Below are positions 6,963-45,467 of a stretch of 49,337 nucleotides of DNA, piece by piece. Source of the stretch: an uncultured Candidatus Saccharibacteria bacterium (GTDB lineage: Bacteria; Patescibacteriota; Minisyncoccia; Phycocordibacterales; JAACPR01); assembly GCA_964589635.1 (NCBI GenBank), contig CAZPRI010000003.1, positions 1-49,337 on the forward strand, in the 5' to 3' direction. The translations under genes and the position numbers were made by a program. The notes beneath the pieces are model-generated. The model saw only the letters and a list, made by a program, of their open reading frames with translations. It made no database searches and was not told where the DNA came from. Positions within the stretch are counted from its first letter, which is position 1. Every line of letters begins with the position of its first letter.

Positions 6963-7892
6963 TTAATCCCAATTAGTATCTTCTCCAGTCAATGCCTGTA
7001 TTCTTTCTTCTACAGGTGGATGAGTTAAGAAAATCTTATTAAAGAAACTTCTTTTTTTATTTTTATGTAATTCTTGTAATTTAATACCACTATTAAATGG
7101 ATCAGAAATAAAGAGATGAGCAGTAGCATGACTAGCTTTTTTCATAGCTACAGGATATTCACTAATCTTTTTTAATGCAGAAGCCAAACCCTGAGGATAC
7201 CTAGTCATTAATGCACCAGTTGAATCAGCAAGAAATTCTCTTTTCCTTGAAATAGCTAATTGCATGAAACCTGCAATGATTGGAATAATTATTGCCCCAA
7301 TCAGGCCAATAATCATGATCAGACCATTACCCTTATTATCTCTATCACCCAGGAAAAAAGTACTCCTAATGAAGAAATCTGTCACTAATGCAATAAGTCC
7401 GACCAAAACAACAACAACTGATTGAAGCAATATATCCCTATTTTTTATGTGTGAAAGTTCATGTGCGATAACACCCTCAAGCTCACTCTTATTAAGAAGC
7501 GCCAAAAGGCCACTAGTGAATGCAACGGCACTATGTTCATAATCACGTCCAGTAGCAAAAGCGTTAGGAGCAGATTCATCTATCACATATATTTTTGGCA
7601 TTGGTAGACCTGCAGTAATACATAAATTCTCGACCAAAGTATATAGGCCATAATATTCCTCTTTATCCACTTTCTTTGCTCCAGTTAATTTTAGAACAAT
7701 CTTGTCACTAAACCAGAAAGAGAAAACATTCATCAGTAATGCAAAAAGAAAGAACACGTAAATTATTGTTAGAGAATCATAATAGAGGCTAAAAAACCAC
7801 CCAATTAAAACAATAATTAATGCAAAACCTGACATCAGTAGCCAAGTTTTTGAAACATTACTTTCTCCTACTTTGTATAAATTTGAAGACAT
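6963..7892 (-). CDS. htpX: Zinc metalloprotease HtpX (M48)
   Basis: The ORF has the HELSHIKNRD HExxH motif, TM helices and a THPP..ERI C-terminal motif. It is adjacent to lemA. Confidence 0.9.
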   Translation of the reverse strand: MSSNLYKVGESNVSKTWLLMSGFALIIVLIGWFFSLYYDSLTIIYVFFLFALLMNVFSFWFSDKIVLKLTGAKKVDKEEYYGLYTLVENLCITAGLPMPKIYVIDESAPNAFATGRDYEHSAVAFTSGLLALLNKSELEGVIAHELSHIKNRDILLQSVVVVLVGLIALVTDFFIRSTFFLGDRDNKGNGLIMIIGLIGAIIIPIIAGFMQLAISRKREFLADSTGALMTRYPQGLASALKKISEYPVAMKKASHATAHLFISDPFNSGIKLQELHKNKKRSFFNKIFLTHPPVEERIQALTGEDTNWD

Positions 7893-7905
7893 TTATATAC
7901 TTTTC

Positions 7906-8460
7906 TTAGAATTTTACTTTTACGGGTTCTCTTGCTGCGGCTTCTTCAAACTCAAAGAAGTCCTTTTTTGTAAACTTAAATATATTGGCAATAATATTAC
8001 TTGTGAACGATTCAACTGCAATATTTAGATCTCGCACATTTGTATTGTAAAACCTTCTTGAAGCTTGAATTTTATTTTCGGTATCAGTTAATTCTCTTTG
8101 AAGTTCTAAAAAGTTTTCATTAGCCTTTAGATCAGGATAACTTTCTGAGACAGCAAACAGAGACTTCAAAGCTCCTGAAAGCATGTTCTCAGCGTCAGCC
8201 TGTTCTTCTACACTTTGAGCTCCCATTGCGGCAGTTCTTGCCTCTGTAACTTTTTGGAATGTGGCACTTTCGTGTGCAGCATAACCCTTAACAGTTTCAA
8301 TAAGATTTGGAATAAGGTCATACCTTCTTTTTAATTGAACATCAATGTCTGACCACGCTTCTTTAGCTCTTGTACTTAGCTTTACGAATTTATTGTAGAA
8401 TCCAGCAACCATCAAGGCCACAAGAACTACAATAATTAATATAATTGTTGTAATACCCAT
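7906..8460 (-). CDS. lemA: LemA family protein
   Basis: The ORF has an N-terminal TM helix plus YN..V........AWS.IDVQLKRR.DLIPNL....K typical of LemA. Confidence 0.85.
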   Translation of the reverse strand: MGITTIILIIVVLVALMVAGFYNKFVKLSTRAKEAWSDIDVQLKRRYDLIPNLIETVKGYAAHESATFQKVTEARTAAMGAQSVEEQADAENMLSGALKSLFAVSESYPDLKANENFLELQRELTDTENKIQASRRFYNTNVRDLNIAVESFTSNIIANIFKFTKKDFFEFEEAAAREPVKVKF

Positions 8461-10480: not shown

Positions 10481-12172
10481 ATGAGTCTCGGAAAAAAAAT
10501 AAAAAACATAATACATCAATTTTCATTGACAGAAAAAATTGTCTTTGGTTTTTTCTTTACGATATTACTATTTTCTACCCTATCTTCATTGATAAAAATA
10601 AACACAACTTATTTAGTTGAGGTGCCCCAAAGGGGTGGAGAAATAAAAGAAGGTCTCATTGGAGCACCTAGATTTATAAATCCTGTCATTTCTATCTCTG
10701 ATACTGACAGAGATCTATCAACACTTATTTATTCTGGGCTATTGAAACTTAATTCAGATGGAGAACTTGTAAATGATTTAGCCCAGGAGTTTACAGTTTC
10801 AGAGGATGGTCTGACTTATTACATTAAAATAAGAGATGATGCTTTTTTTCATGACGGAAAACCTATTACAACTGACGATTTAATATTCACTATTCAAAAG
10901 ACTCAAGATCCAGCAATAAAATCTCCAAAAAGACCAAATTGGGACGGAGTTATTATTGAAAAGATAAATGAAAAGGAAATTGAATTTATTCTAGGAGAAA
11001 CATACTCACCCTTCGTACATAATCTAACACTTGGAGTCTTACCTAAACATATTTGGGAAAACATAACCACAGATGAATTTGCTTTTTCAAATTACAACAT
11101 AGAACCAATTGGATCTGGGCCTTATACAGTAGAAGATGTTTCTAGGGATAAAAATGGTGTTGTAAAAAAATACAAACTTGATAGTTATAAAAAATACACA
11201 CAAGGAGAACCTTTTGTAGAAAGAATTGAATTTAGTTTTTTCAAAAACGAAAATGAACTAATAGAAGCTTTGAATAAAAACATAATCGATTCAGCTCATA
11301 GTATTTCTCCTAACAAAATTTCCGAATTACACAAAAAAAACAAAGAACTAAATGTGTCTTCTTTCTCTAGAATCTTTGCACTGTACTTTAATCAAGCGGA
11401 GAATGATGTACTCAAGAATAAAACAATCAGAGAAGCCTTGAATCTTGCTACGCCGAAAGATGAAATCATTGAAAATATACTATCTGGATTCGGAAGTCCT
11501 ATCGAAAGCCCTTTACCTCAAACACAAATACTTGATGAAGTTTTCAGTAAATATGATAAAGAAAAAGCAGTGGCGTTACTAGAAGATGATGGATGGGAAA
11601 AAAATGAAAATGGAGTATTCAGTAAGGAAACAGATGACGCAATTCTTACATTTGAATTTAGTATCTCAACTGCAAACGTAAAGGAACTTGTTGATGTCAC
11701 AGAATTCATCGCGAATAATTATAGAGAAATAGGGGCCGATGTGACAGTTAAAGTTTTTGAACCAAATGATTTAACATTAAATGTTATACGCCCACGAGAA
11801 TTCGAATCAATATTTTTTGGACAAATAATCAAGAGAGATAATGATCTCTATGCATTCTGGCACTCATCACAACGAAATGATCCAGGCCTAAATATTGCAG
11901 ATTACACAAATATTGAAGCAGATAAGGCTCTTGAAAAAATACGGTCCTCTTTCAACACAGAAGATGTACAAAATAACTTGCAAATTTTTGAGAAAGAAGT
12001 TATAAATGATGTACCAGCAATCTTCTTATATTCTCCAGATTTTATTTACATTTCGCCTAGAAACCTAAAACTAGAAGTTCCTAAAAATATTGTGACTTCT
12101 TCTGACAGGTTCGCTGATGTAGAAAAATGGTTTATAGAAACTGATTCAGTTTGGAAGATATTTGCTAATTAA
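10481..12172 (+). CDS. Solute-binding protein family 5 (peptide/nickel ABC-type substrate-binding protein)
   Basis: The ORF has an N-terminal TM/signal segment and a roughly 520-aa SBP_bac_5-like body (LIGAPRFINP.., LV..LA..). The ATG at 10481 is the likely start. No permease gene is adjacent. Confidence 0.7.
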   Translation: MSLGKKIKNIIHQFSLTEKIVFGFFFTILLFSTLSSLIKINTTYLVEVPQRGGEIKEGLIGAPRFINPVISISDTDRDLSTLIYSGLLKLNSDGELVNDLAQEFTVSEDGLTYYIKIRDDAFFHDGKPITTDDLIFTIQKTQDPAIKSPKRPNWDGVIIEKINEKEIEFILGETYSPFVHNLTLGVLPKHIWENITTDEFAFSNYNIEPIGSGPYTVEDVSRDKNGVVKKYKLDSYKKYTQGEPFVERIEFSFFKNENELIEALNKNIIDSAHSISPNKISELHKKNKELNVSSFSRIFALYFNQAENDVLKNKTIREALNLATPKDEIIENILSGFGSPIESPLPQTQILDEVFSKYDKEKAVALLEDDGWEKNENGVFSKETDDAILTFEFSISTANVKELVDVTEFIANNYREIGADVTVKVFEPNDLTLNVIRPREFESIFFGQIIKRDNDLYAFWHSSQRNDPGLNIADYTNIEADKALEKIRSSFNTEDVQNNLQIFEKEVINDVPAIFLYSPDFIYISPRNLKLEVPKNIVTSSDRFADVEKWFIETDSVWKIFAN

Positions 12173-23177: not shown

Positions 23178-23295
23178 TTTCCGTGTCGTCACATCAGATA
23201 ATCCCAACATTGGTTATGCCAGATTTTTCTGGAATCCTCGCCTTTTGAAAAATAACTAGTAACAAAAAACATAAAACCTGTTAATATAACCTCAT

Positions 23296-23366
23296 TGCCT
23301 GATCGTCTAATGGTAGGACTACGGTTTCTGGTACCGTCAATTGGGGTTCGAGTCCCTATCAGGCAG
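23296..23366 (+). tRNA. tRNA-Gln (CUG)
   Basis: Manual cloverleaf: acceptor TGCCTGA/TCAGGCA with U1-A72, a 3-bp D stem, anticodon arm ACGGT-TTCTGGT-ACCGT, and T arm TGGGG-TTCGAGT-CCCTA. CCA is not encoded. Confidence 0.9.
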
Positions 23367-23369
23367 CAT

Positions 23370-23417
23370 AAAGTAGTCAGGTCCGTAAGCGATTAAGCTT
23401 TCGGACCTTTCTACTTT
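23370..23417 (+). other. Hairpin directly after tRNA-Gln
   Basis: AAAGTAGTCAGGTCCG pairs with CGGACCTTTCTACTTT, giving 14 bp with a 2-nt internal mismatch. Confidence 0.6.
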
Positions 23418-23428
23418 AACTGATTAAG

Positions 23429-23555
23429 AGGACGAGAAAACCGGAGGCTCAGGGCCCCTGTATCCGTAACCTGTGGAAGATCTGGGATAGCCGAGTCGAG
23501 GTCGCGAAAATTTTGTTTGGCAAAATTATTTGTGACCGAGTCCCTATCAGGCAGC
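23429..23555 (+). other. tRNA-linked conserved non-coding element, copy A, ending in a 19-nt copy of the tRNA-Gln 3' end
   Basis: 23429-23537 is about 90 percent identical to the reverse complement of 33831-33938. 23537-23555 is identical to 23349-23367. It contains a bulged hairpin at 23500-23537. Confidence 0.8.
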
Positions 23556-23616
23556 CACGTAAAAAACATAACAAAAAAGCAGGTATACTAACCTGCTTTT
23601 TTGTTATGTTCACGTG
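23556..23616. terminator. Very long perfect hairpin, terminator-like and bidirectional
   Basis: AACATAACAAAAAAGCAGGT-ATACTA-ACCTGCTTTTTTGTTATGTT is a 20-bp stem, extended by CACGT/ACGTG. Confidence 0.7.
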
Positions 23617-23764
23617 GCGCAGCCGGGTGAACAATTTCCCGTTAGGAAATAGTTTTTACGTGGTCGCGTGAGACGACTGAAAGGAAGATTATACGCGACT
23701 GATTCTCATAAAAATTTTAACTTTTCTTTACAACTCATTGAGAACTTTTAGTTAATCTTTCAAT

Positions 23765-24022
23765 ATGTTTTATGTTTATCTTTTAGATCATATACAAGAC
23801 AAAACTTGGTATATAGGATACACCACAAATCTGGAAAGAAGACTTAGCGAACATCAAAATGGTGGTGGTTCGAGAACAACAAGCCTTAAAAAAGGAAACT
23901 ATAAACTCATATACTACGAAGCTTATTTGAATAAGCAAGATGCAACAAGCAGAGAGAAATATCTCAAAAGTGGCTCAGGAAGAAAATATATTAAAAAACA
24001 ACTAAGGAATTATTTATCCTGA
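23765..24022 (+). CDS. GIY-YIG nuclease superfamily protein (UPF0213-like, 85 aa)
   Basis: FYVYLL......WYIGYTTNLERRLSEHQNG is the GIY-YIG signature. Confidence 0.8.
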   Translation: MFYVYLLDHIQDKTWYIGYTTNLERRLSEHQNGGGSRTTSLKKGNYKLIYYEAYLNKQDATSREKYLKSGSGRKYIKKQLRNYLS

Positions 24023-24071
24023 CTCGTCTTAAACGATAGAGCTTTTTGTATAAAATGCTAAAATTTATCTG

Positions 24072-24314
24072 ATGAATAAACAAAAAGGCCTTTCAACTTT
24101 ATGGAGAATTATTATTTTATTAGTTATTGGTGTTGGTGATTATTATTTTACTAATAAAAATACTGAAAGTATTCCCATAAATGAAAATAATAATCCTCTT
24201 GAAGACACAAACAACACCACTAAGACATCTCTACAAAATCTACAGAATGAAAATAATTATAAATTAGTTCCAAAAGAGTCACAGAAAATAATAGAAAGTT
24301 ATGATGACGATTGA
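24072..24314 (+). CDS. Small membrane-anchored hypothetical protein
   Basis: The 80-aa ORF has one TM helix and an Asn-rich tail. Confidence 0.4.
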   Translation: MNKQKGLSTLWRIIILLVIGVGDYYFTNKNTESIPINENNNPLEDTNNTTKTSLQNLQNENNYKLVPKESQKIIESYDDD

Positions 24315-24327
24315 CAAAAATATTTTT

Positions 24328-24408
24328 TGGCGCACAGGATGTTTTTATGAGAAAGAGGGAGCCTTCACTGGAGAAATATCAAATGAAATGGTTCACCTGC
24401 CACCGAAA
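24328..24408 (+). pseudogene. tpiA: Relic fragment of triosephosphate isomerase
   Basis: The frame reads WRTGCFYEKEGAFTGEISNEM. GAFTGEIS preceded by (N)xFYExx matches the conserved TIM segment AQNvfyE..GAFTGEIS. It has no start and runs into a stop after about 27 codons. Confidence 0.5.
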
Positions 24409-24622
24409 TAGAGGTTAATGACTCCACCGATTTACCTACAACATATCTTCTTGTGTACGAAAATGATACAACCTACATTATCCATTACTTTAAAGGTAAT
24501 GATAAAACCTATATCACGAAAGAATGCTTTCGACACTTTTTTTCAATTAATTTATTGATTCTGATTAATATTGAATCACCAGATATGTTTTAACTTCATC
24601 CAATGAGTAAGGTTCCTAGGCT

Positions 24623-24829
24623 TTGGAATCTAAAGACGCTGCAAGAATTAGCGAAGCGGCTCTAAAAATTGCAGAAGCTGGTACTACCATGAGTGCAGAA
24701 CAAGGAAAGATGGAAACAGAAATAAATGACTGGTTCTCAGTACACATTAATGAACCCATGCTTGAAGTAGAAGATAGACTAGAAGCAATACTAAGCGTAT
24801 GTTCTGAAGCTGAAAAGGCACTTAAATAG
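24623..24829 (+). CDS. Doubtful small ORF in a decayed region
   Basis: The ORF track gives 68 aa with a non-ATG start. There is no SD and no recognised motif. Confidence 0.2.
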   Translation: MESKDAARISEAALKIAEAGTTMSAEQGKMETEINDWFSVHINEPMLEVEDRLEAILSVCSEAEKALK

Positions 24830-24925
24830 TGCAACGCTAGAATACGTGAAGTTCAAAGACTAAATTTGACAGATTAAGTAATATAGTATATAAATATAAA
24901 ACTGTTCCTCAACAAAAAAGACTAA

Positions 24926-25087
24926 ATGGGAAGAAAAAAGAAGTCTAAAAAAAGTCCTCCACTATTAATGAAAGATATATCGGAATATGACCCACATGAT
25001 CAGTTTCTGATCAGGGAGATACTCCGGCCGATGCAAACAGAGTTATTGGCAAAGTATATCGAATCTTTTCAATGTAAGGTGAAATGA
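24926..25087 (+). CDS. Small basic ORF (53 aa), below the ORF-track cutoff
   Basis: From an ATG it reads MGRKKKSKKSPPLLMKDISEYDPHDQFLIREILRPMQTELLAKYIESFQCKVK, followed 5 nt later by a strong terminator. The SD is weak. Confidence 0.35.
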   Translation: MGRKKKSKKSPPLLMKDISEYDPHDQFLIREILRPMQTELLAKYIESFQCKVK

Positions 25088-25091
25088 CTTT

Positions 25092-25121
25092 GTGCCCCGT
25101 CCGAAGGACGGGGCACTTTTT
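25092..25121 (+). terminator. Rho-independent terminator (GAAG loop)
   Basis: GTGCCCCGTCC-GAA-GGACGGGGCAC followed by TTTTT. Confidence 0.85.
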
Positions 25122-25218
25122 ATAATAAAAATCTAGTCCAATCAATCATTCTACAATCAATAAAACAATATTACTTCTTTAAAAGAAATTTATTTCTCCA
25201 TGGTATACTCCTTGTATA

Positions 25219-26895
25219 ATGACACAAAAAGAAGCCTTAAAAGTACTAAAAATGGGTAAAAATGTCTTTCTGACTGGGGCCGCTGGTTCTGGTAAGACTC
25301 ACCTACTGAATCAATATATCGACTTTTTAAAAGAAAGAGGTGTTGAAGTTGCTGTGACTGCTTCAACAGGAATAGCAGCAACACACATTAAAGGTCTTAC
25401 AATCCACTCTTGGTCAGGAATTGGTATCAAAGACACTCTAACAGACTACGACCTAGATTTTCTCGAACAAAAACAATATCTATACAAAAGATATGAAAAA
25501 ACAAAAGTTTTGATAATCGATGAGATTTCAATGTTGAGTTCATCAGTTTTGGACTCAATCAACAAGGTTGCAAAGATGTTCAAGAGAAATAATTTACCTT
25601 TCGGAGGGATGCAGGTTATATTTTCTGGCGACTTTTTCCAACTCCCCCCTATCCAAAGATATAACCCTGAGACCATGTCATCAAACCAGGCTGCTCCAAA
25701 AATACCTTTTGCATTTAATTCAGACGCATGGGCAAATTCCGATTTACATGTTTGCTATTTGTCTGAACAATTTAGACAGACTGATAATAAACTTCTAGAT
25801 ATATTAAATTCCATACGGGATCAAATTCAGACCGATGAAATAAACAAAACTCTCTCTGATAGGATTATTCCAATCGAGGATGATGAAATCACAAAGCTTT
25901 TTACGCACAATGCGAATGTAGATACATACAATCAAGGAAAATTGGACTCTATTGATATACCAGGGAAAACATACAAAATGTCATCAAAAGGAAAAAGTAA
26001 TTTGGTCGAAACATTGAAAAAGGGATGTCTTGTACCGGAAAATCTCGTCCTAAAAAAAGGAGCACTTGTTATGTTTGTAAAAAATAATCCAGCTGCAGGA
26101 TATATAAACGGTACTGTTGGGAGAATTATAGATTTTGATGATAGTTTCCCTGTTGTTGAAACAAAGAACGGAGAAAAATTCACCGCACTCCCCCAGTCTT
26201 GGTCCGTAGAGGAGGGTCAGAAAATTTTAGCTGAGATCACACAGGTTCCATTAAAACTAGCATGGGCCGTAACAATTCATAAAAGCCAAGGGATGACGTT
26301 AGATCGAGCGTATATTGATTTATCAAACTCCTTTGTAGAAGGACAAGGCTACGTTGCACTATCTAGAATTCAAACTCTAGACGGGCTATTCTTAAAGGGC
26401 TTTAATGCAAAATCACTAACAATTCACAATGATGTAAAAACCAGAGATGATGATTTCAGAAATATTTCTGATGAAATTTTTGAGAAGACAAAAAAAATAA
26501 CAGAGAAGGATTTTGAAAAAGAACATAAGGCATTTTTGGAAAAAATTGATGCAAAAAAATTTAAGGTCTCTGATCCTGAAGGGAATAAATTAAGCACATT
26601 TCAAATAACAAAGAATTTTCTAAAGGATAAAAAGAGTCTGGATAGTATTGCCTCAGAAAGAAAATTAACAGTTGGTACAATATTAAGTCATATAGAAAAA
26701 CTACTTGAAGAAAAAGCTATCAAGAAAGAAGACTTCGTGTACCTAAAACCTTCTACAAAAGAATTCAAAGAAATGTATAATGAGATATCAGAAAAGATTG
26801 AAGAAAAAGAGGACAAGAAACTTACACCAATCTTTCAATCACTTAATGGAAAATATACCTACGAAGATATTAGATTTATAAAAATATTTTTATAA
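25219..26895 (+). CDS. PIF1/RecD-like SF1 DNA helicase
   Basis: Walker A is GAAGSGKT and Walker B is IIDEISM. GDFFQLPPI and HKSQGMT..A.IDLS are also present, with an additional C-terminal domain of about 150 aa. Confidence 0.85.
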   Translation: MTQKEALKVLKMGKNVFLTGAAGSGKTHLLNQYIDFLKERGVEVAVTASTGIAATHIKGLTIHSWSGIGIKDTLTDYDLDFLEQKQYLYKRYEKTKVLIIDEISMLSSSVLDSINKVAKMFKRNNLPFGGMQVIFSGDFFQLPPIQRYNPETMSSNQAAPKIPFAFNSDAWANSDLHVCYLSEQFRQTDNKLLDILNSIRDQIQTDEINKTLSDRIIPIEDDEITKLFTHNANVDTYNQGKLDSIDIPGKTYKMSSKGKSNLVETLKKGCLVPENLVLKKGALVMFVKNNPAAGYINGTVGRIIDFDDSFPVVETKNGEKFTALPQSWSVEEGQKILAEITQVPLKLAWAVTIHKSQGMTLDRAYIDLSNSFVEGQGYVALSRIQTLDGLFLKGFNAKSLTIHNDVKTRDDDFRNISDEIFEKTKKITEKDFEKEHKAFLEKIDAKKFKVSDPEGNKLSTFQITKNFLKDKKSLDSIASERKLTVGTILSHIEKLLEEKAIKKEDFVYLKPSTKEFKEMYNEISEKIEEKEDKKLTPIFQSLNGKYTYEDIRFIKIFL

Positions 26896-26896
26896 A

Positions 26897-27103
26897 CTAA
26901 AGCCCAAGAGAGCTAATGTCAGTATAACTACTTAAAAAGCTTGGAATCACAAACATCATTCCAATTAATGGTAGAAGAAATCCTATTACAGAGACAACTA
27001 TTATTATGAGGAAATATTTTCGTGTCTTCTCTACTGATACATATATTTCATCAATTTTTTTTGATTGTTCTTCTATTTTATCTAATATTTCTTGTTCATT
27101 CAT
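26897..27103 (-). CDS. Small membrane protein (68 aa)
   Basis: The ORF has one or two TM helices and is tightly packed upstream of ftsX. Confidence 0.45.
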   Translation of the reverse strand: MNEQEILDKIEEQSKKIDEIYVSVEKTRKYFLIIIVVSVIGFLLPLIGMMFVIPSFLSSYTDISSLGL

Positions 27104-27115
27104 AATATGTACATA

Positions 27116-33817: not shown

Positions 33818-33938
33818 ATCGAAGGGACTCGGTCACAAATATTTTCTACGAAAATTTCGCGACCCCGACTCGACCATCCCAGATCCTCCACAAGTTACGG
33901 ATACAGGGGCCCTGGGCCTCCGTCTTTCTCGTCCCTGT
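33818..33938 (-). other. tRNA-linked conserved non-coding element, copy B, ending in a 14-nt copy of the tRNA-Asp T-arm and acceptor start
   Basis: The reverse complement of 33831-33938 is about 90 percent identical to 23429-23537. 33818-33831 is identical to 33997-34010 within tRNA-Asp. It contains a bulged hairpin at 33831-33864. Confidence 0.8.
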
Positions 33939-33946
33939 TCGCTGTT

Positions 33947-33988
33947 AAAAATAAAGACCTAAGTATGAAATACTTAGGTCTTTATTTT
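33947..33988 (-). terminator. Strong terminator directly after tRNA-Asp
   Basis: AAAATAAAGACCTAAGTA-TGAAA-TACTTAGGTCTTTATTTT forms a perfect stem of about 18 bp flanked by A and T runs. Confidence 0.85.
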
Positions 33989-33992
33989 AATG

Positions 33993-34066
33993 CGCGATCG
34001 AAGGGACTCGAACCCTCAACCTCCCGCGTGACAGGCGGGTGCTCTAACCAGTTGAGCTACGACCGC
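33993..34066 (-). tRNA. tRNA-Asp (GUC)
   Basis: Manual cloverleaf: acceptor GCGGTCG/CGATCGC, D arm GCTC-AACTGGTTA-GAGC, anticodon arm CCCGC-CTGTCAC-GCGGG, and T arm GAGGG-TTCGAGT-CCCTT. Confidence 0.9.
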
Positions 34067-36360: not shown

Positions 36361-36434
36361 TGGTAGCGGGGCCCAGAATCGAACTGGGACCTTCAGGTTA
36401 TGAGCCTGACGAGGTGCCTTTCCTCCACCCCGCT
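36361..36434 (-). tRNA. tRNA-Met (CAU), initiator-like, CCA encoded
   Basis: AGCGGGGTGGAG..CTCGTCAGGCTCATAACCTGAAGGTC..CCAGTTCGATTCTGGGCCCCGCTACCA closely parallels E. coli tRNA-fMet. Confidence 0.85.
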
Positions 36435-36633
36435 ATGGATATTTTGTTTTAAAACCTTTGTATAGATATTCAATGTTACTTTAGGCATGAGCTCTATAAT
36501 ACTCTCTCGGAGGTGCCTTTCCTCCACCCCGCTATGGATATTTTGTTTTAAAACCTTTGTATAGATATTCAATGTTACTTTAGGCATGAGCTCTATAATA
36601 CTCTCTCGGAGGTGCCTTTCCTCCACCCCTCTA
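36411..36633 (-). repeat. 99-bp tandem repeat (about 2.25 units), each unit carrying the first 24-25 nt of the initiator-like tRNA plus about 74 bp of its upstream region
   Basis: Units start at 36411, 36510 and 36609. The first two units are identical by eye, and the third is truncated and diverges after CCACCCC. Confidence 0.9.
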
Positions 36634-36646
36634 TATGATCGAAATT

Positions 36647-36699
36647 CGTCATCCCAGATCGGCAGGCCGTTTACAGGCCGCAGTAGTCTGGGATCCATG
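36647..36699 (-). repeat. GC-rich palindromic element, copy R5
   Basis: CGTCATCCCAGATCGGCAGGCCGTTTACAGGCCGCAGTAGTCTGGGATCCATG has the same CGTCATCC...GGGATCCATG ends as R2 and R6. Confidence 0.7.
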
Positions 36700-44774: not shown

Positions 44775-45440
44775 TGACAACGTCGGACGTTGCCAAAATT
44801 ATTATTAATATTTTAAAGTTTATTTAGATATTCTTTATGAAATTATAGTAAAAAATAATACATGGAGAGTTTTTTTGAAAATGAGTATTATCATATTTAT
44901 GTTAGAGGAAAAAATAAAGAGAACATTTTTTTAGAAGAAAATGATTATTTAAGAATGATGGCTTTAATAAACAATTGCAATAAGATCGATTCAGACTCCC
45001 TGTCTAGAATATTAAGAAAAAATAACATCAAAGAACTATGTGCATATAAAGAACTATGTGCATATAAAGAAAACCAAACTTCTTTTCTAGAAATGCAGTC
45101 TTTTACAATAATGCCAAATCACTTACATCTTATGTTTAAAAGCTTAAGTCCTAAATTTACGGGGCATTTCATGAGAAGAATACTTACATCATATGCAAAA
45201 TACTTTAACCTAAAATATTCAAACATAGGACATGTCTTTGAGAGTAAATATAAATTTGAACATGTAAACACACAAGAATACTTTGATATCTTACTTAGTT
45301 ATATAAGGAACAATCCTTTAAAATTATTAGACAAAAAATATAAACACATAGACCTTATAAACGGGATCTACAAAATTTCACCTGAAATAGATATCTTTAT
45401 TAAAAATTATCCCTATTCTTGGCAACGTCCGACGTTGACA
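44775..45440 (+). mobile_element. RAYT/IS200-like unit: HUH-Y1 transposase gene bracketed by inverted 22-bp REP hairpins
   Basis: The left end at 44775-44796 is TGACAACGTCGGACGTTGCCAA. The right end at 45419-45440 is TTGGCAACGTCCGACGTTGACA. Each contains the palindrome CAACGTC-N-GACGTTG. Confidence 0.8.
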
Positions 45441-45467
45441 GACTCAACCATGTCATTCATTTCCTGA
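44862..45467 (+). CDS. REP-associated tyrosine transposase (IS200/IS605 TnpA-like, HUH-Y1)
   Basis: YHIYVRGKNKENIF, the HUH motif in IMPNHLHLMF, and the catalytic Tyr region LSYIRNNPLK are present. The ORF contains an in-frame 18-bp tandem duplication, and its 3' end reads through the right REP into rpe. Confidence 0.8.
   Translation: MESFFENEYYHIYVRGKNKENIFLEENDYLRMMALINNCNKIDSDSLSRILRKNNIKELCAYKELCAYKENQTSFLEMQSFTIMPNHLHLMFKSLSPKFTGHFMRRILTSYAKYFNLKYSNIGHVFESKYKFEHVNTQEYFDILLSYIRNNPLKLLDKKYKHIDLINGIYKISPEIDIFIKNYPYSWQRPTLTDSTMSFIS

Follow-up and report, generated by a model that had tools for sequence, protein, structure and literature searches.

Several integrative elements, e.g., phages P4 and Ms6 and the Islander class "attP site J," form tRNA islands by crossing over in the T loop or T stem of a tRNA gene. 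Islands made by an integrase leave as their signature an intact tRNA gene and, in direct orientation, a displaced 3′ fragment, and the T-stem region is the most common attP sublocation, found in 1836 of 3919 islands (PMC4383910). The T-loop integrase of phage Ms6 was retargeted to another tRNA by changing the attP core only (PMC1762012), and cis-mobilizable elements (CIMEs) are bounded by attL and attR, have lost their integration and transfer genes, and often occur in tandem accretion (PMC6323972). Here we describe a conserved non-coding block of 107 bp behind a tRNA-Gln gene in a 49,337-nt stretch of DNA (the whole stretch analyzed, hereafter the window) from an uncultivated groundwater member of the Patescibacteria (candidate phyla radiation, CPR) with a G+C content of 34%. 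The names borne by homologues of its NAD kinase and Fpg point to a Paceibacteria-type host. The block recurs behind tRNA-Asp in the same window and behind tRNA-Lys in a 6.6-kb related metagenome contig (L028/L029). The three tRNA-linked copies share one anatomy and an identical junction position, lack coding capacity, and are absent from the relatives compared. We conclude that these modules are a real, tRNA-linked, lineage-restricted non-coding family, and we tentatively favor, at somewhat less than even confidence, their interpretation as miniature integrative elements of ∼170–190 bp that carry no recombinase gene and lie between attL-like and attR-like sites.

One conserved block behind three tRNA genes

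At each of the three loci the block is followed by a partial copy of the 3′ end of the same tRNA gene that it stands behind, and among the loci compared such partial copies occur only where the block is present. Every junction reads ...GAC/CGAGTCC (the slash marking the join) and starts at tRNA position 56, for Gln, Asp, and Lys alike. From there, identity toward the tRNA 3′ end extends over 19 nt at Gln, 18 nt at Lys, and at least 14 nt at Asp, with copy-to-copy spacings of 188 bp (Gln), 179 bp (Asp), and 193 bp (Lys). The interval between tRNA and fragment measures 160–175 bp and holds no conserved open reading frame (ORF). In all three loci the block starts at the identical base, 8–12 nt past a trailer hairpin, and the three blocks (Gln, Asp, and the second of two modules at the Lys locus) are mutually equidistant at 89–90% identity, as expected for copies of one element family. 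A first-pass annotation of the window had placed the junction in the T loop and linked each copy to its own tRNA on the basis of the Gln and Asp loci; the Lys locus extends both points to a third tRNA species.

The Gln and Asp loci are composed as follows, with tRNA genes called by ARAGORN and by Rfam covariance models (Rfam 15), for which only four tRNAs pass the gathering score in the searched sequence.

23296-23366/7, plus strand: intact tRNA-Gln(CTG), found by ARAGORN and by Rfam (tRNA model, 53.8 bits)
23349-23367, plus strand: proximal 19-nt repeat, attL-like core; exact direct repeat that starts at T-loop position 56 and takes in the discriminator and one further base
23368-23429, plus strand: trailer with an A-rich run, a hairpin (inverted repeat), a T-rich run, and TTTAAC
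23430-23536, plus strand: conserved block of 107 bp, G+C 50%, no Rfam match
23537-23557, plus strand: displaced tRNA-Gln 3′ end, attR-like core; 19 nt exact, then an encoded CCA at 23555-23557
23555-23617, plus strand: distal terminator hairpin, with CCACGT, an A-run, a perfect 20-bp stem, a T-run, and CACGTGG, then CGCAGCC
33992-34066, minus strand: intact tRNA-Asp(GTC), found by ARAGORN and Rfam; CAT follows and CCA is not encoded
33997-34010, minus strand: proximal 14-nt repeat CGAGTCCCTTCGAT inside tRNA-Asp, a direct repeat with spacing 179
33935-33991, minus strand: trailer and hairpin between tRNA-Asp and the block, an inverted repeat with arms 33939-33966 / 33970-33997
33832-33934, minus strand: second copy of the block, 89% identical to the Gln copy, with a 4-nt deletion in the hairpin loop and G+C 53%
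33818-33831, minus strand: displaced 14-nt copy (CGAGTCCCTTCGAT) of the T-loop-to-acceptor segment of tRNA-Asp, a direct repeat

The working tRNA-Gln gene ends in ...CAGGCAG followed by CAT and does not encode CCA. An exact repeat of its last 19 nt, CGAGTCCCTATCAGGCAGC, stands in direct orientation 188 bp further downstream, at 23537-23555; this displaced copy reads ...GCAG-CCA and, unlike the working gene, carries the encoded CCA. Between the two copies lie the trailer hairpin (arms 23369-23390 / 23397-23418, 86% complementary) and the block, which reads in order GGACGAGAAA ... CAGGGCCCCTG ... GATCTGGGAT ... GGTCGCGA, an A+T-rich hairpin, and TTTGTGAC. The distal trailer consists of CCACGTAAAAAAC, a hairpin, and CACGTGGCGCAGCC; the stem of this hairpin (23565-23584 / 23591-23610) is perfect over 20 bp, and CCACGT/ACGTGG extends the pairing to 23555-23617. 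All of the principal features noted in the first-pass annotation were borne out here, namely the tRNA-Gln(CUG) at 23296-23366 (on which ARAGORN and Rfam agree), the exact 19-nt repeat 188 bp on, the hairpin between the copies, the very long perfect hairpin past the junction, and the ∼90% identity of the block to a reverse complement behind tRNA-Asp (89% ungapped).

Aligned in full, the Gln and Asp blocks show 92 matches, 11 mismatches (nine of them transitions), and one 4-nt indel (89% identity ungapped, 86% gapped), and a 41-nt block pattern occurs exactly twice in the window vs. never in 100 shuffles. The block is all that the two window loci have in common, which rules out an ordinary segmental duplication. 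The first annotation had the Asp block ending in a copy of the T arm of its own tRNA. This is corrected here to a 14-nt copy made up of half of the T loop, the T stem's 3′ strand, and four acceptor bases (the first ones), with divergence setting in before the end of the tRNA is reached. After these 14 nt the copy is truncated or diverged, and there is no terminator behind it.

A metagenome scan with block patterns returned the same strain and one new locus, L028/L029, behind tRNA-Lys(UUU). On the tRNA strand, tRNA-Lys comes first, with a CAT trailer that contains a hairpin. Module 1 follows, then 18 nt that copy the 3′ end of tRNA-Lys exactly, then module 2, and finally a degenerate CGGGTCCTATG and the fpg stop codon. 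Module 1 shares its first 16 nt with the block (GGACGAGAAAGACGGA), differs in the middle, and has the same 3′ architecture (GGTCGYGA, an A+T-rich hairpin, and ...TGAC); a 12-bp repeat, GAGAAAGACGGA, stands on both sides of it. Module 2 is a 90% copy of the block without its first 6 nt. Taken over all loci, two repeats are intact (Gln and L029 module 1) and two are truncated (Asp and L029 module 2), with no genes inside.

Origin of the units: integration, scars, or duplicated targets

The three loci resemble tyrosine-integrase tRNA islands in pairing an intact tRNA with a displaced 3′ fragment in direct orientation (19, 14, and 18 nt), in the canonical T-loop/T-stem-to-3′-end sublocation of the identity block (14–19 nt, three of three loci, as in the Islander collection), in that the element would supply a replacement 3′ end and terminator, and in the tandem array at one tRNA (Lys). 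They differ from such islands in that the insert is only 170–190 bp, with no integrase or other gene between tRNA and fragment, in that near-identical arms (89–90%) stand at three tRNA species, and in that the arm is G+C-rich. The first-pass description of an insert under 200 bp without a recombinase held, and no recombinase was found in the window or in the third locus. The closest named category is the cis-mobilizable element: as in the CIMEs of streptococcal ICE and IME families (integrative elements that are conjugative or mobilizable, respectively), attL and attR are kept, integration and transfer genes are absent (PMC6323972), and related elements accrete in tandem (L029). CIMEs are, however, kilobases long with cargo, a cognate ICE or IME with the same att sites has been identified for them, and their mobilization has been demonstrated, whereas the present unit is essentially a bare attP with no known cognate element in a patescibacterial host.

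In the interpretation that we favor, the working tRNA would be the attL-like site and the displaced 3′ copy the attR-like site. A tyrosine integrase with T-loop strand exchange, encoded elsewhere in the genome or since lost, would have recombined a small circle into the tRNA gene. This circle would comprise a P arm (the conserved block ending in ...GTGAC), the core CGAGTCC, and a P′ arm made of the remainder of the cognate tRNA plus a terminator. Exchange inside CGAGTCC would yield an intact tRNA whose end is element DNA, and would also leave the block joined, at tRNA position 56, to the 3′ end and trailer that the host had originally. Upon a change of target, tRNA-specific P′ arms would be swapped in by capture of host 3′ ends with their trailers, which would explain native-like trailers that are only ∼55% alike. 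At the Lys locus, tandem accretion may have preceded a microhomology deletion between two similar hexamers (GGCGGA and GGACGA); the two modules stand there in tandem, separated by an exact copy of the Lys 3′ end, as in tandem accretion. We infer the recombinase, the circular intermediate, the P′ swapping, and any continued ability to move.

If instead three larger related integrase islands had each lost their interiors independently and left only their att arms, the present units would never have moved as miniatures and would be passive scars. The attL/attR anatomy would be identical under this explanation, the truncated copies at Asp and L029 module 2 point to decay, and the region behind tRNA-Gln is variable: more distant relatives lack the 3.9 kb that hold tRNA-Gln, the GIY-YIG gene, and the Pif1-like gene, and a further relic resembling a tRNA 3′ end lies at 23653-23690 on the minus strand. 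Three independent deletions would, however, need endpoints within the same few bases, since the block begins at the same base in three of three loci, 8–12 nt past the trailer hairpin, and the unit lengths are near-equal (188, 179, and 193 bp). We therefore consider collapsed islands improbable; the constant architecture, length, and block start base argue that the miniature unit itself spread. An additional att copy that would close a larger island behind tRNA-Gln was not found with up to 6 mismatches allowed.

The relic-like sequence at 23653-23690 (minus strand) is an inverted partial copy of the distal trailer type, ...CAGTCGTCTCACGCGA-CCACGTAAAAAC, with a small hairpin. It is 84% complementary to 23547-23565, and its AGTCG...CGCGA resembles CGAGTCGAGGTCGCGA inside the block. 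Another tRNA-like sequence seems to have its 3′ end here, converging on the Gln locus.

The trailers bear directly on which side of the junction is host DNA, and we compared them with block-free tRNA genes of relatives. In L040, which is 80% identical to L029, the block is absent and tRNA-Lys runs into CCACGTAAAA, a hairpin, and CACGTGGCACAGCC; in L033, tRNA-Gln is followed by CCATGTACC...GGTACATGG. The distal Gln trailer is of the type found behind the block-free tRNA-Lys of L040 and resembles the CCATGT... trailer of the L033 tRNA-Gln; because of this trailer type and its encoded CCA, the distal Gln copy has the look of the original host 3′ end that is expected at attR.

Several observations weigh against miniature integrated elements, and one of them concerns the same trailers. 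In L029 the trailer that adjoins tRNA-Lys has a homologue in the native L040 trailer (ATAAAAACNAAAG ... GCTTTTGGTTTTTA) and is 8 nt shorter, a sign that this proximal terminator either is native or came by capture from a native locus. This homology fits an insertion downstream of a native terminator equally well, and the two trailer comparisons (distal Gln, proximal Lys) thus point in opposite directions. Likewise, 23368-23429 acts as the terminator of the working tRNA-Gln and is either the P′ arm of the element or the native terminator of the gene; its hairpin may belong natively to the tRNA gene, which complicates a simple attL/attR picture. No integrase gene is present in the 49-kb window or in the 6.6-kb third locus, and the occurrence of one block at three tRNAs, each with its own correct 3′ end, requires the P′-swapping step, which is extra and undocumented. 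The block itself has 50–53% G+C vs. 34% for the genome and is 89–90% conserved, compared with ∼55% for the adjoining trailers of the Gln, Asp, and Lys loci (z = 2.7–4.7), and the displaced Gln and Lys copies remain perfect; together these suggest selection on block plus tail rather than neutral att scars. The insert is present in all of the ∼20 same-strain contigs from several samples, neither a clean empty site nor a circular form was seen, and no full-length relative carrying the block was found in 185,579 genomes, IMG/VR, or phage or plasmid records.

Staggered cuts in the T loop and near the tRNA 3′ end, with gap filling that duplicates the 14–19 nt between them, offer another route to the same repeats. 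Cas1-type casposases and target-primed reverse transcription duplicate their targets through staggered cuts, and each copy would then have the right tRNA sequence without the element bringing it. Such a target-site duplication would account for repeats that are specific to three tRNAs while the blocks are nearly identical, and for a left edge fixed at position 56 with a variable right edge, as in long variable duplications; 210 bp downstream of the Gln locus there is also a small gene for a GIY-YIG nuclease. Under this scheme, however, the proximal trailer would be element DNA and should be ∼90% identical among loci, compared with the actual ∼55%, and the L029 proximal trailer is instead homologous to the native one of L040. 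Terminal inverted repeats are also absent, neither the window nor L029 yielded a casposase or a reverse transcriptase, and the GIY-YIG gene is missing from the Asp and Lys loci. We regard this route as very unlikely.

Other classes of mobile DNA were considered and rejected. The units are like miniature inverted-repeat transposable elements (MITEs) in being small, non-coding, multi-copy, and non-autonomous, and unlike them in having no terminal inverted repeats (beyond GGAC/GTCC), no short duplication of fixed length (the repeats are 14–19 nt and tRNA-specific), and a strict tie to one tRNA position. An IS200/IS605 or REP/RAYT element does not fit, as the two hairpins of the unit are unrelated in sequence and the only Y1_Tnp ORF is separated from the Gln locus by 21 kb and from the Asp locus by 11 kb. 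That ORF (44862-45467, plus strand; Pfam Y1_Tnp, E = 1.6e-7) is a solitary IS200-like Y1 (HUH) transposase or RAYT-like gene between those for transketolase and ribulose-phosphate epimerase, and is the sole transposase-like ORF found. A diversity-generating retroelement was rejected because nine of the 11 differences between the blocks are transitions of both kinds, reverse transcriptase is absent, and both copies are intergenic; a primer-binding site (antisense complementary to the tRNA 3′ end) fits Gln, including CCA, and not Asp, whose copy lacks the terminal 6 nt.

Coding capacity, RNA folding, and the guide-RNA alternative

The first annotation saw no credible ORF in the block. This stands in the sense that no ORF is conserved, although an antisense ORF is open across the block in both window copies. 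We do not consider it a gene because it is shifted by the 4-nt indel, carries a stop (CAA to TAA) in L029, and would have an amino acid altered by about five of eight differences. Searched against Rfam to E = 10, the block at 23430-23536 itself gave nothing, in line with the first annotation, which did not recognize it as a known RNA or IS family; the weak hits center on the terminator hairpin, a few of them starting within the last bases of the block (23500-23526). A known RNA family was therefore rejected, as Rfam yields only the tRNAs and chance matches on or overlapping that hairpin.

The main alternative is a small RNA gene. In this account the block would be a structured RNA of ∼125 nt, on the same strand as the tRNA, whose tail is the last 14–21 nt of the neighboring tRNA; the tail would be the functional part, for example as a guide for an RNA-guided DNA-binding or recombination protein homing to tRNA genes, or as a tRNA-3′-end mimic for a tRNA-handling enzyme. 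Structured RNAs in A+T-rich genomes tend to have raised G+C, and the block has 50–53% in a 34% genome. Its high G+C and its strong conservation (89–90%, against ∼55% in the flanking trailers) somewhat favor the tRNA-linked structured RNA that was the last of three options offered in the first-pass annotation, and the Gln and Lys tails are perfect copies. A stem, GGUCGC/GUGACC, encloses the hairpin directly before the tail and is kept in the Asp copy despite the 4-nt indel and a G-C to C-G swap; the divergent L029 module 1 has an analogous stem-loop, and a strong terminator stands behind the Gln copy. Against this, no promoter-like site was found upstream of any copy of the block and a tRNA terminator lies immediately upstream, while the Asp copy and both L029 modules have no terminator behind them. 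Single-sequence folds are no more stable than those of shuffles (z = −0.7 and −1.0), the covariation term is −0.11 (from three sequences only), the outer stem is broken in L029 module 2, and an Rfam match is absent even at E = 10. Only three loci are known. On balance we judge an RNA gene unlikely, and the lack of a promoter before the block together with essentially nil covariation support for a fold speaks for miniature integrated elements.

The layout of a conserved scaffold followed by a variable tail invites comparison with TnpB and type V guide RNAs and with the delocalized homing CRISPR RNAs of CRISPR-associated transposons; here the tail is 14–19 nt long and matches a nearby tRNA gene. 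As in those systems, a short constant motif stands before the target and is missing from the RNA gene: GGTT precedes the match in all three tRNAs and GTGAC precedes it at the module, as a self/non-self distinction would require. Guides of CRISPR-associated transposons are known to match homing sites adjoining tRNA genes (PMC11656645), so that tRNA-adjacent homing has a precedent. In contrast to these systems, there is no TnpB, Cas12, IscB, or transposase gene accompanying the units in the window or L029, no transposon ends or transcription signal were found here, and the tail duplicates part of the tRNA gene itself, 180–190 bp away. Integrase, TnpB, IscB, Cas, IS110, and reverse transcriptase genes were all missing among the scanned genes of the window and L029, and an effector gene (TnpB, IscB, Cas12, Tns, or IS110) lies near no copy. 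The fully specified version, in which the block is a guide-RNA scaffold with its tail directed at the T-loop-to-3′ end of the adjacent tRNA, an effector encoded elsewhere homes on, binds, or recombines at tRNA genes, and the three modules are retargeted paralogues of one RNA whose targets are preceded by a GGTT lacking at the RNA gene, strikes us as a long shot.

Two further features of the block were noted on its two strands. On the antisense strand of both window copies (23444-23458, minus; 33906-33920, plus), a G+C-rich hairpin, GGGGCCCTGRGCCTC, followed by a T-rich run has a terminator-like score. The sense strand at the same positions is a near-palindrome, CAGGG-C-CCCTG, which could be a binding site for a protein dimer.

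Distribution, surrounding regions, and implications

Searches for the block in genomes, IMG/VR, metagenomes, phages, and plasmids required exact or near-exact matches. An exact 21-mer of the block and a purine/pyrimidine-degenerate 32-mer had no matches in 185,579 reference genomes, pattern scans of IMG/VR gave chance matches only, and distant blastn of the block against phages and plasmids gave nothing; at this level of matching, no element sharing the block or the junction was found in genomes, IMG/VR, metagenome contigs, phages, or plasmids. Across the same-strain contigs the Gln locus varies by one single-nucleotide polymorphism, at 23441.

Relatives compared were L031, L033, L034-L037, L039, L040, and L041. 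L031 (76% nucleotide identity) keeps synteny as far as window position 23369, a codon beyond tRNA-Gln, after which its DNA is unrelated and holds no block. The search for empty tRNA sites suggested at the outset thus yielded tRNA-Gln and tRNA-Lys genes without the block in relatives (L031, L033, and L040), although the downstream DNA is unrelated and these are not clean empty sites. Of the three proposals in the first-pass annotation, a putative miniature non-autonomous element targeting the T loop is nonetheless the best supported, if only in part. L039, a relative of the Asp-side gene, has no tRNA.

The units have housekeeping genes as neighbors. Those at the Gln locus encode NAD kinase, a small GIY-YIG protein, and a Pif1-like helicase, those at the Asp locus hypothetical proteins, and those in L029 Fpg, a SpoU methylase, and PolA. 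In the more distant L034-L037, NAD kinase directly adjoins FtsX, FtsE, and PrfB, whereas in the window ∼3.9 kb (23178-27115) separates NAD kinase from the FtsX region. We regard this interval as a variable, island-like region anchored on the tRNA. Its contents, and the positions of a trailer type that the distal Gln copy shares with other tRNA genes, are listed here.

23178-27115, window: tRNA-Gln, the block, a GIY-YIG protein (23765-24022), an 80-amino-acid ORF, and a Pif1-like helicase with HTH_40 (25219-26895)
23555-23630, window: shared trailer type, behind the displaced Gln copy
11984-12054, L040, minus strand: shared trailer type, behind tRNA-Lys
10781-10810, L033: shared trailer type, CCATGT variant, behind tRNA-Gln

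This trailer type is common to different tRNAs across organisms. In it CCA is fused to CGT, and an A-run, a hairpin, a T-run, CACGTGG, and CRCAGCC come next; it may be a lineage-specific 3′-processing or terminator module of tRNA genes. Behind the tRNA-Gln of L031, at 7644-7910, a promoter-like site (TTGACA, 17 nt, TATTAAAT) is followed after ∼200 nt by a strong terminator, and this segment could encode an uncalled 57-amino-acid peptide or a small RNA. In L041, fpg matches that of L029 at 98% identity up to L029 position 1185, and the two diverge in the last 95 bp of the gene; a SpoU-like gene lies inverted directly after fpg, and tRNA-Lys and the block are absent. The two differ by a strain-level rearrangement whose breakpoint adjoins the module array.

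A separate repeat array lies upstream of tRNA-Met(CAT) (36361-36434), at 36435-36660 on the minus strand. Its tandem units of ∼96 bp each open with the tRNA's first 24 nt (AGCGGGGTGGAGGAAAGGCACCTC) and go on with the 72 nt normally preceding the gene; two extra 5′ fragments lie at ∼36533 and 36629-36632. The array may be a 5′-fragment counterpart of the same tRNA-locus turnover, or a simple tandem duplication. An ORF at 36393-36698 crosses these units, enters the tRNA, and is thus probably spurious. A relation between the array and the block was rejected, as the two have only a 10-11-mer, GATCTGGGAT(G), in common and shuffles equal the score in 3 of 500 cases for Asp and 22 of 500 for Gln.

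The family is most likely a mildly unusual variant of a well-known process, site-specific integration at tRNA genes. If the block were instead an expressed RNA with a tail matching a tRNA, it would represent a new RNA class, and under the guide-RNA account a stand-alone, tRNA-programmed RNA-guided system would exist in Patescibacteria. For miniature integrated elements the puzzle is how one conserved arm pairs with the correct 3′ ends of three different tRNAs. If that interpretation is true, gene-less DNA of attP size can persist behind several tRNA genes in a streamlined CPR genome and perhaps spread, and the concept of the cis-mobilizable element would extend to its smallest possible form. 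To our knowledge, mobile elements are poorly known in Patescibacteria, and the block would then provide a marker for integrase activity and tRNA-locus turnover in this group.

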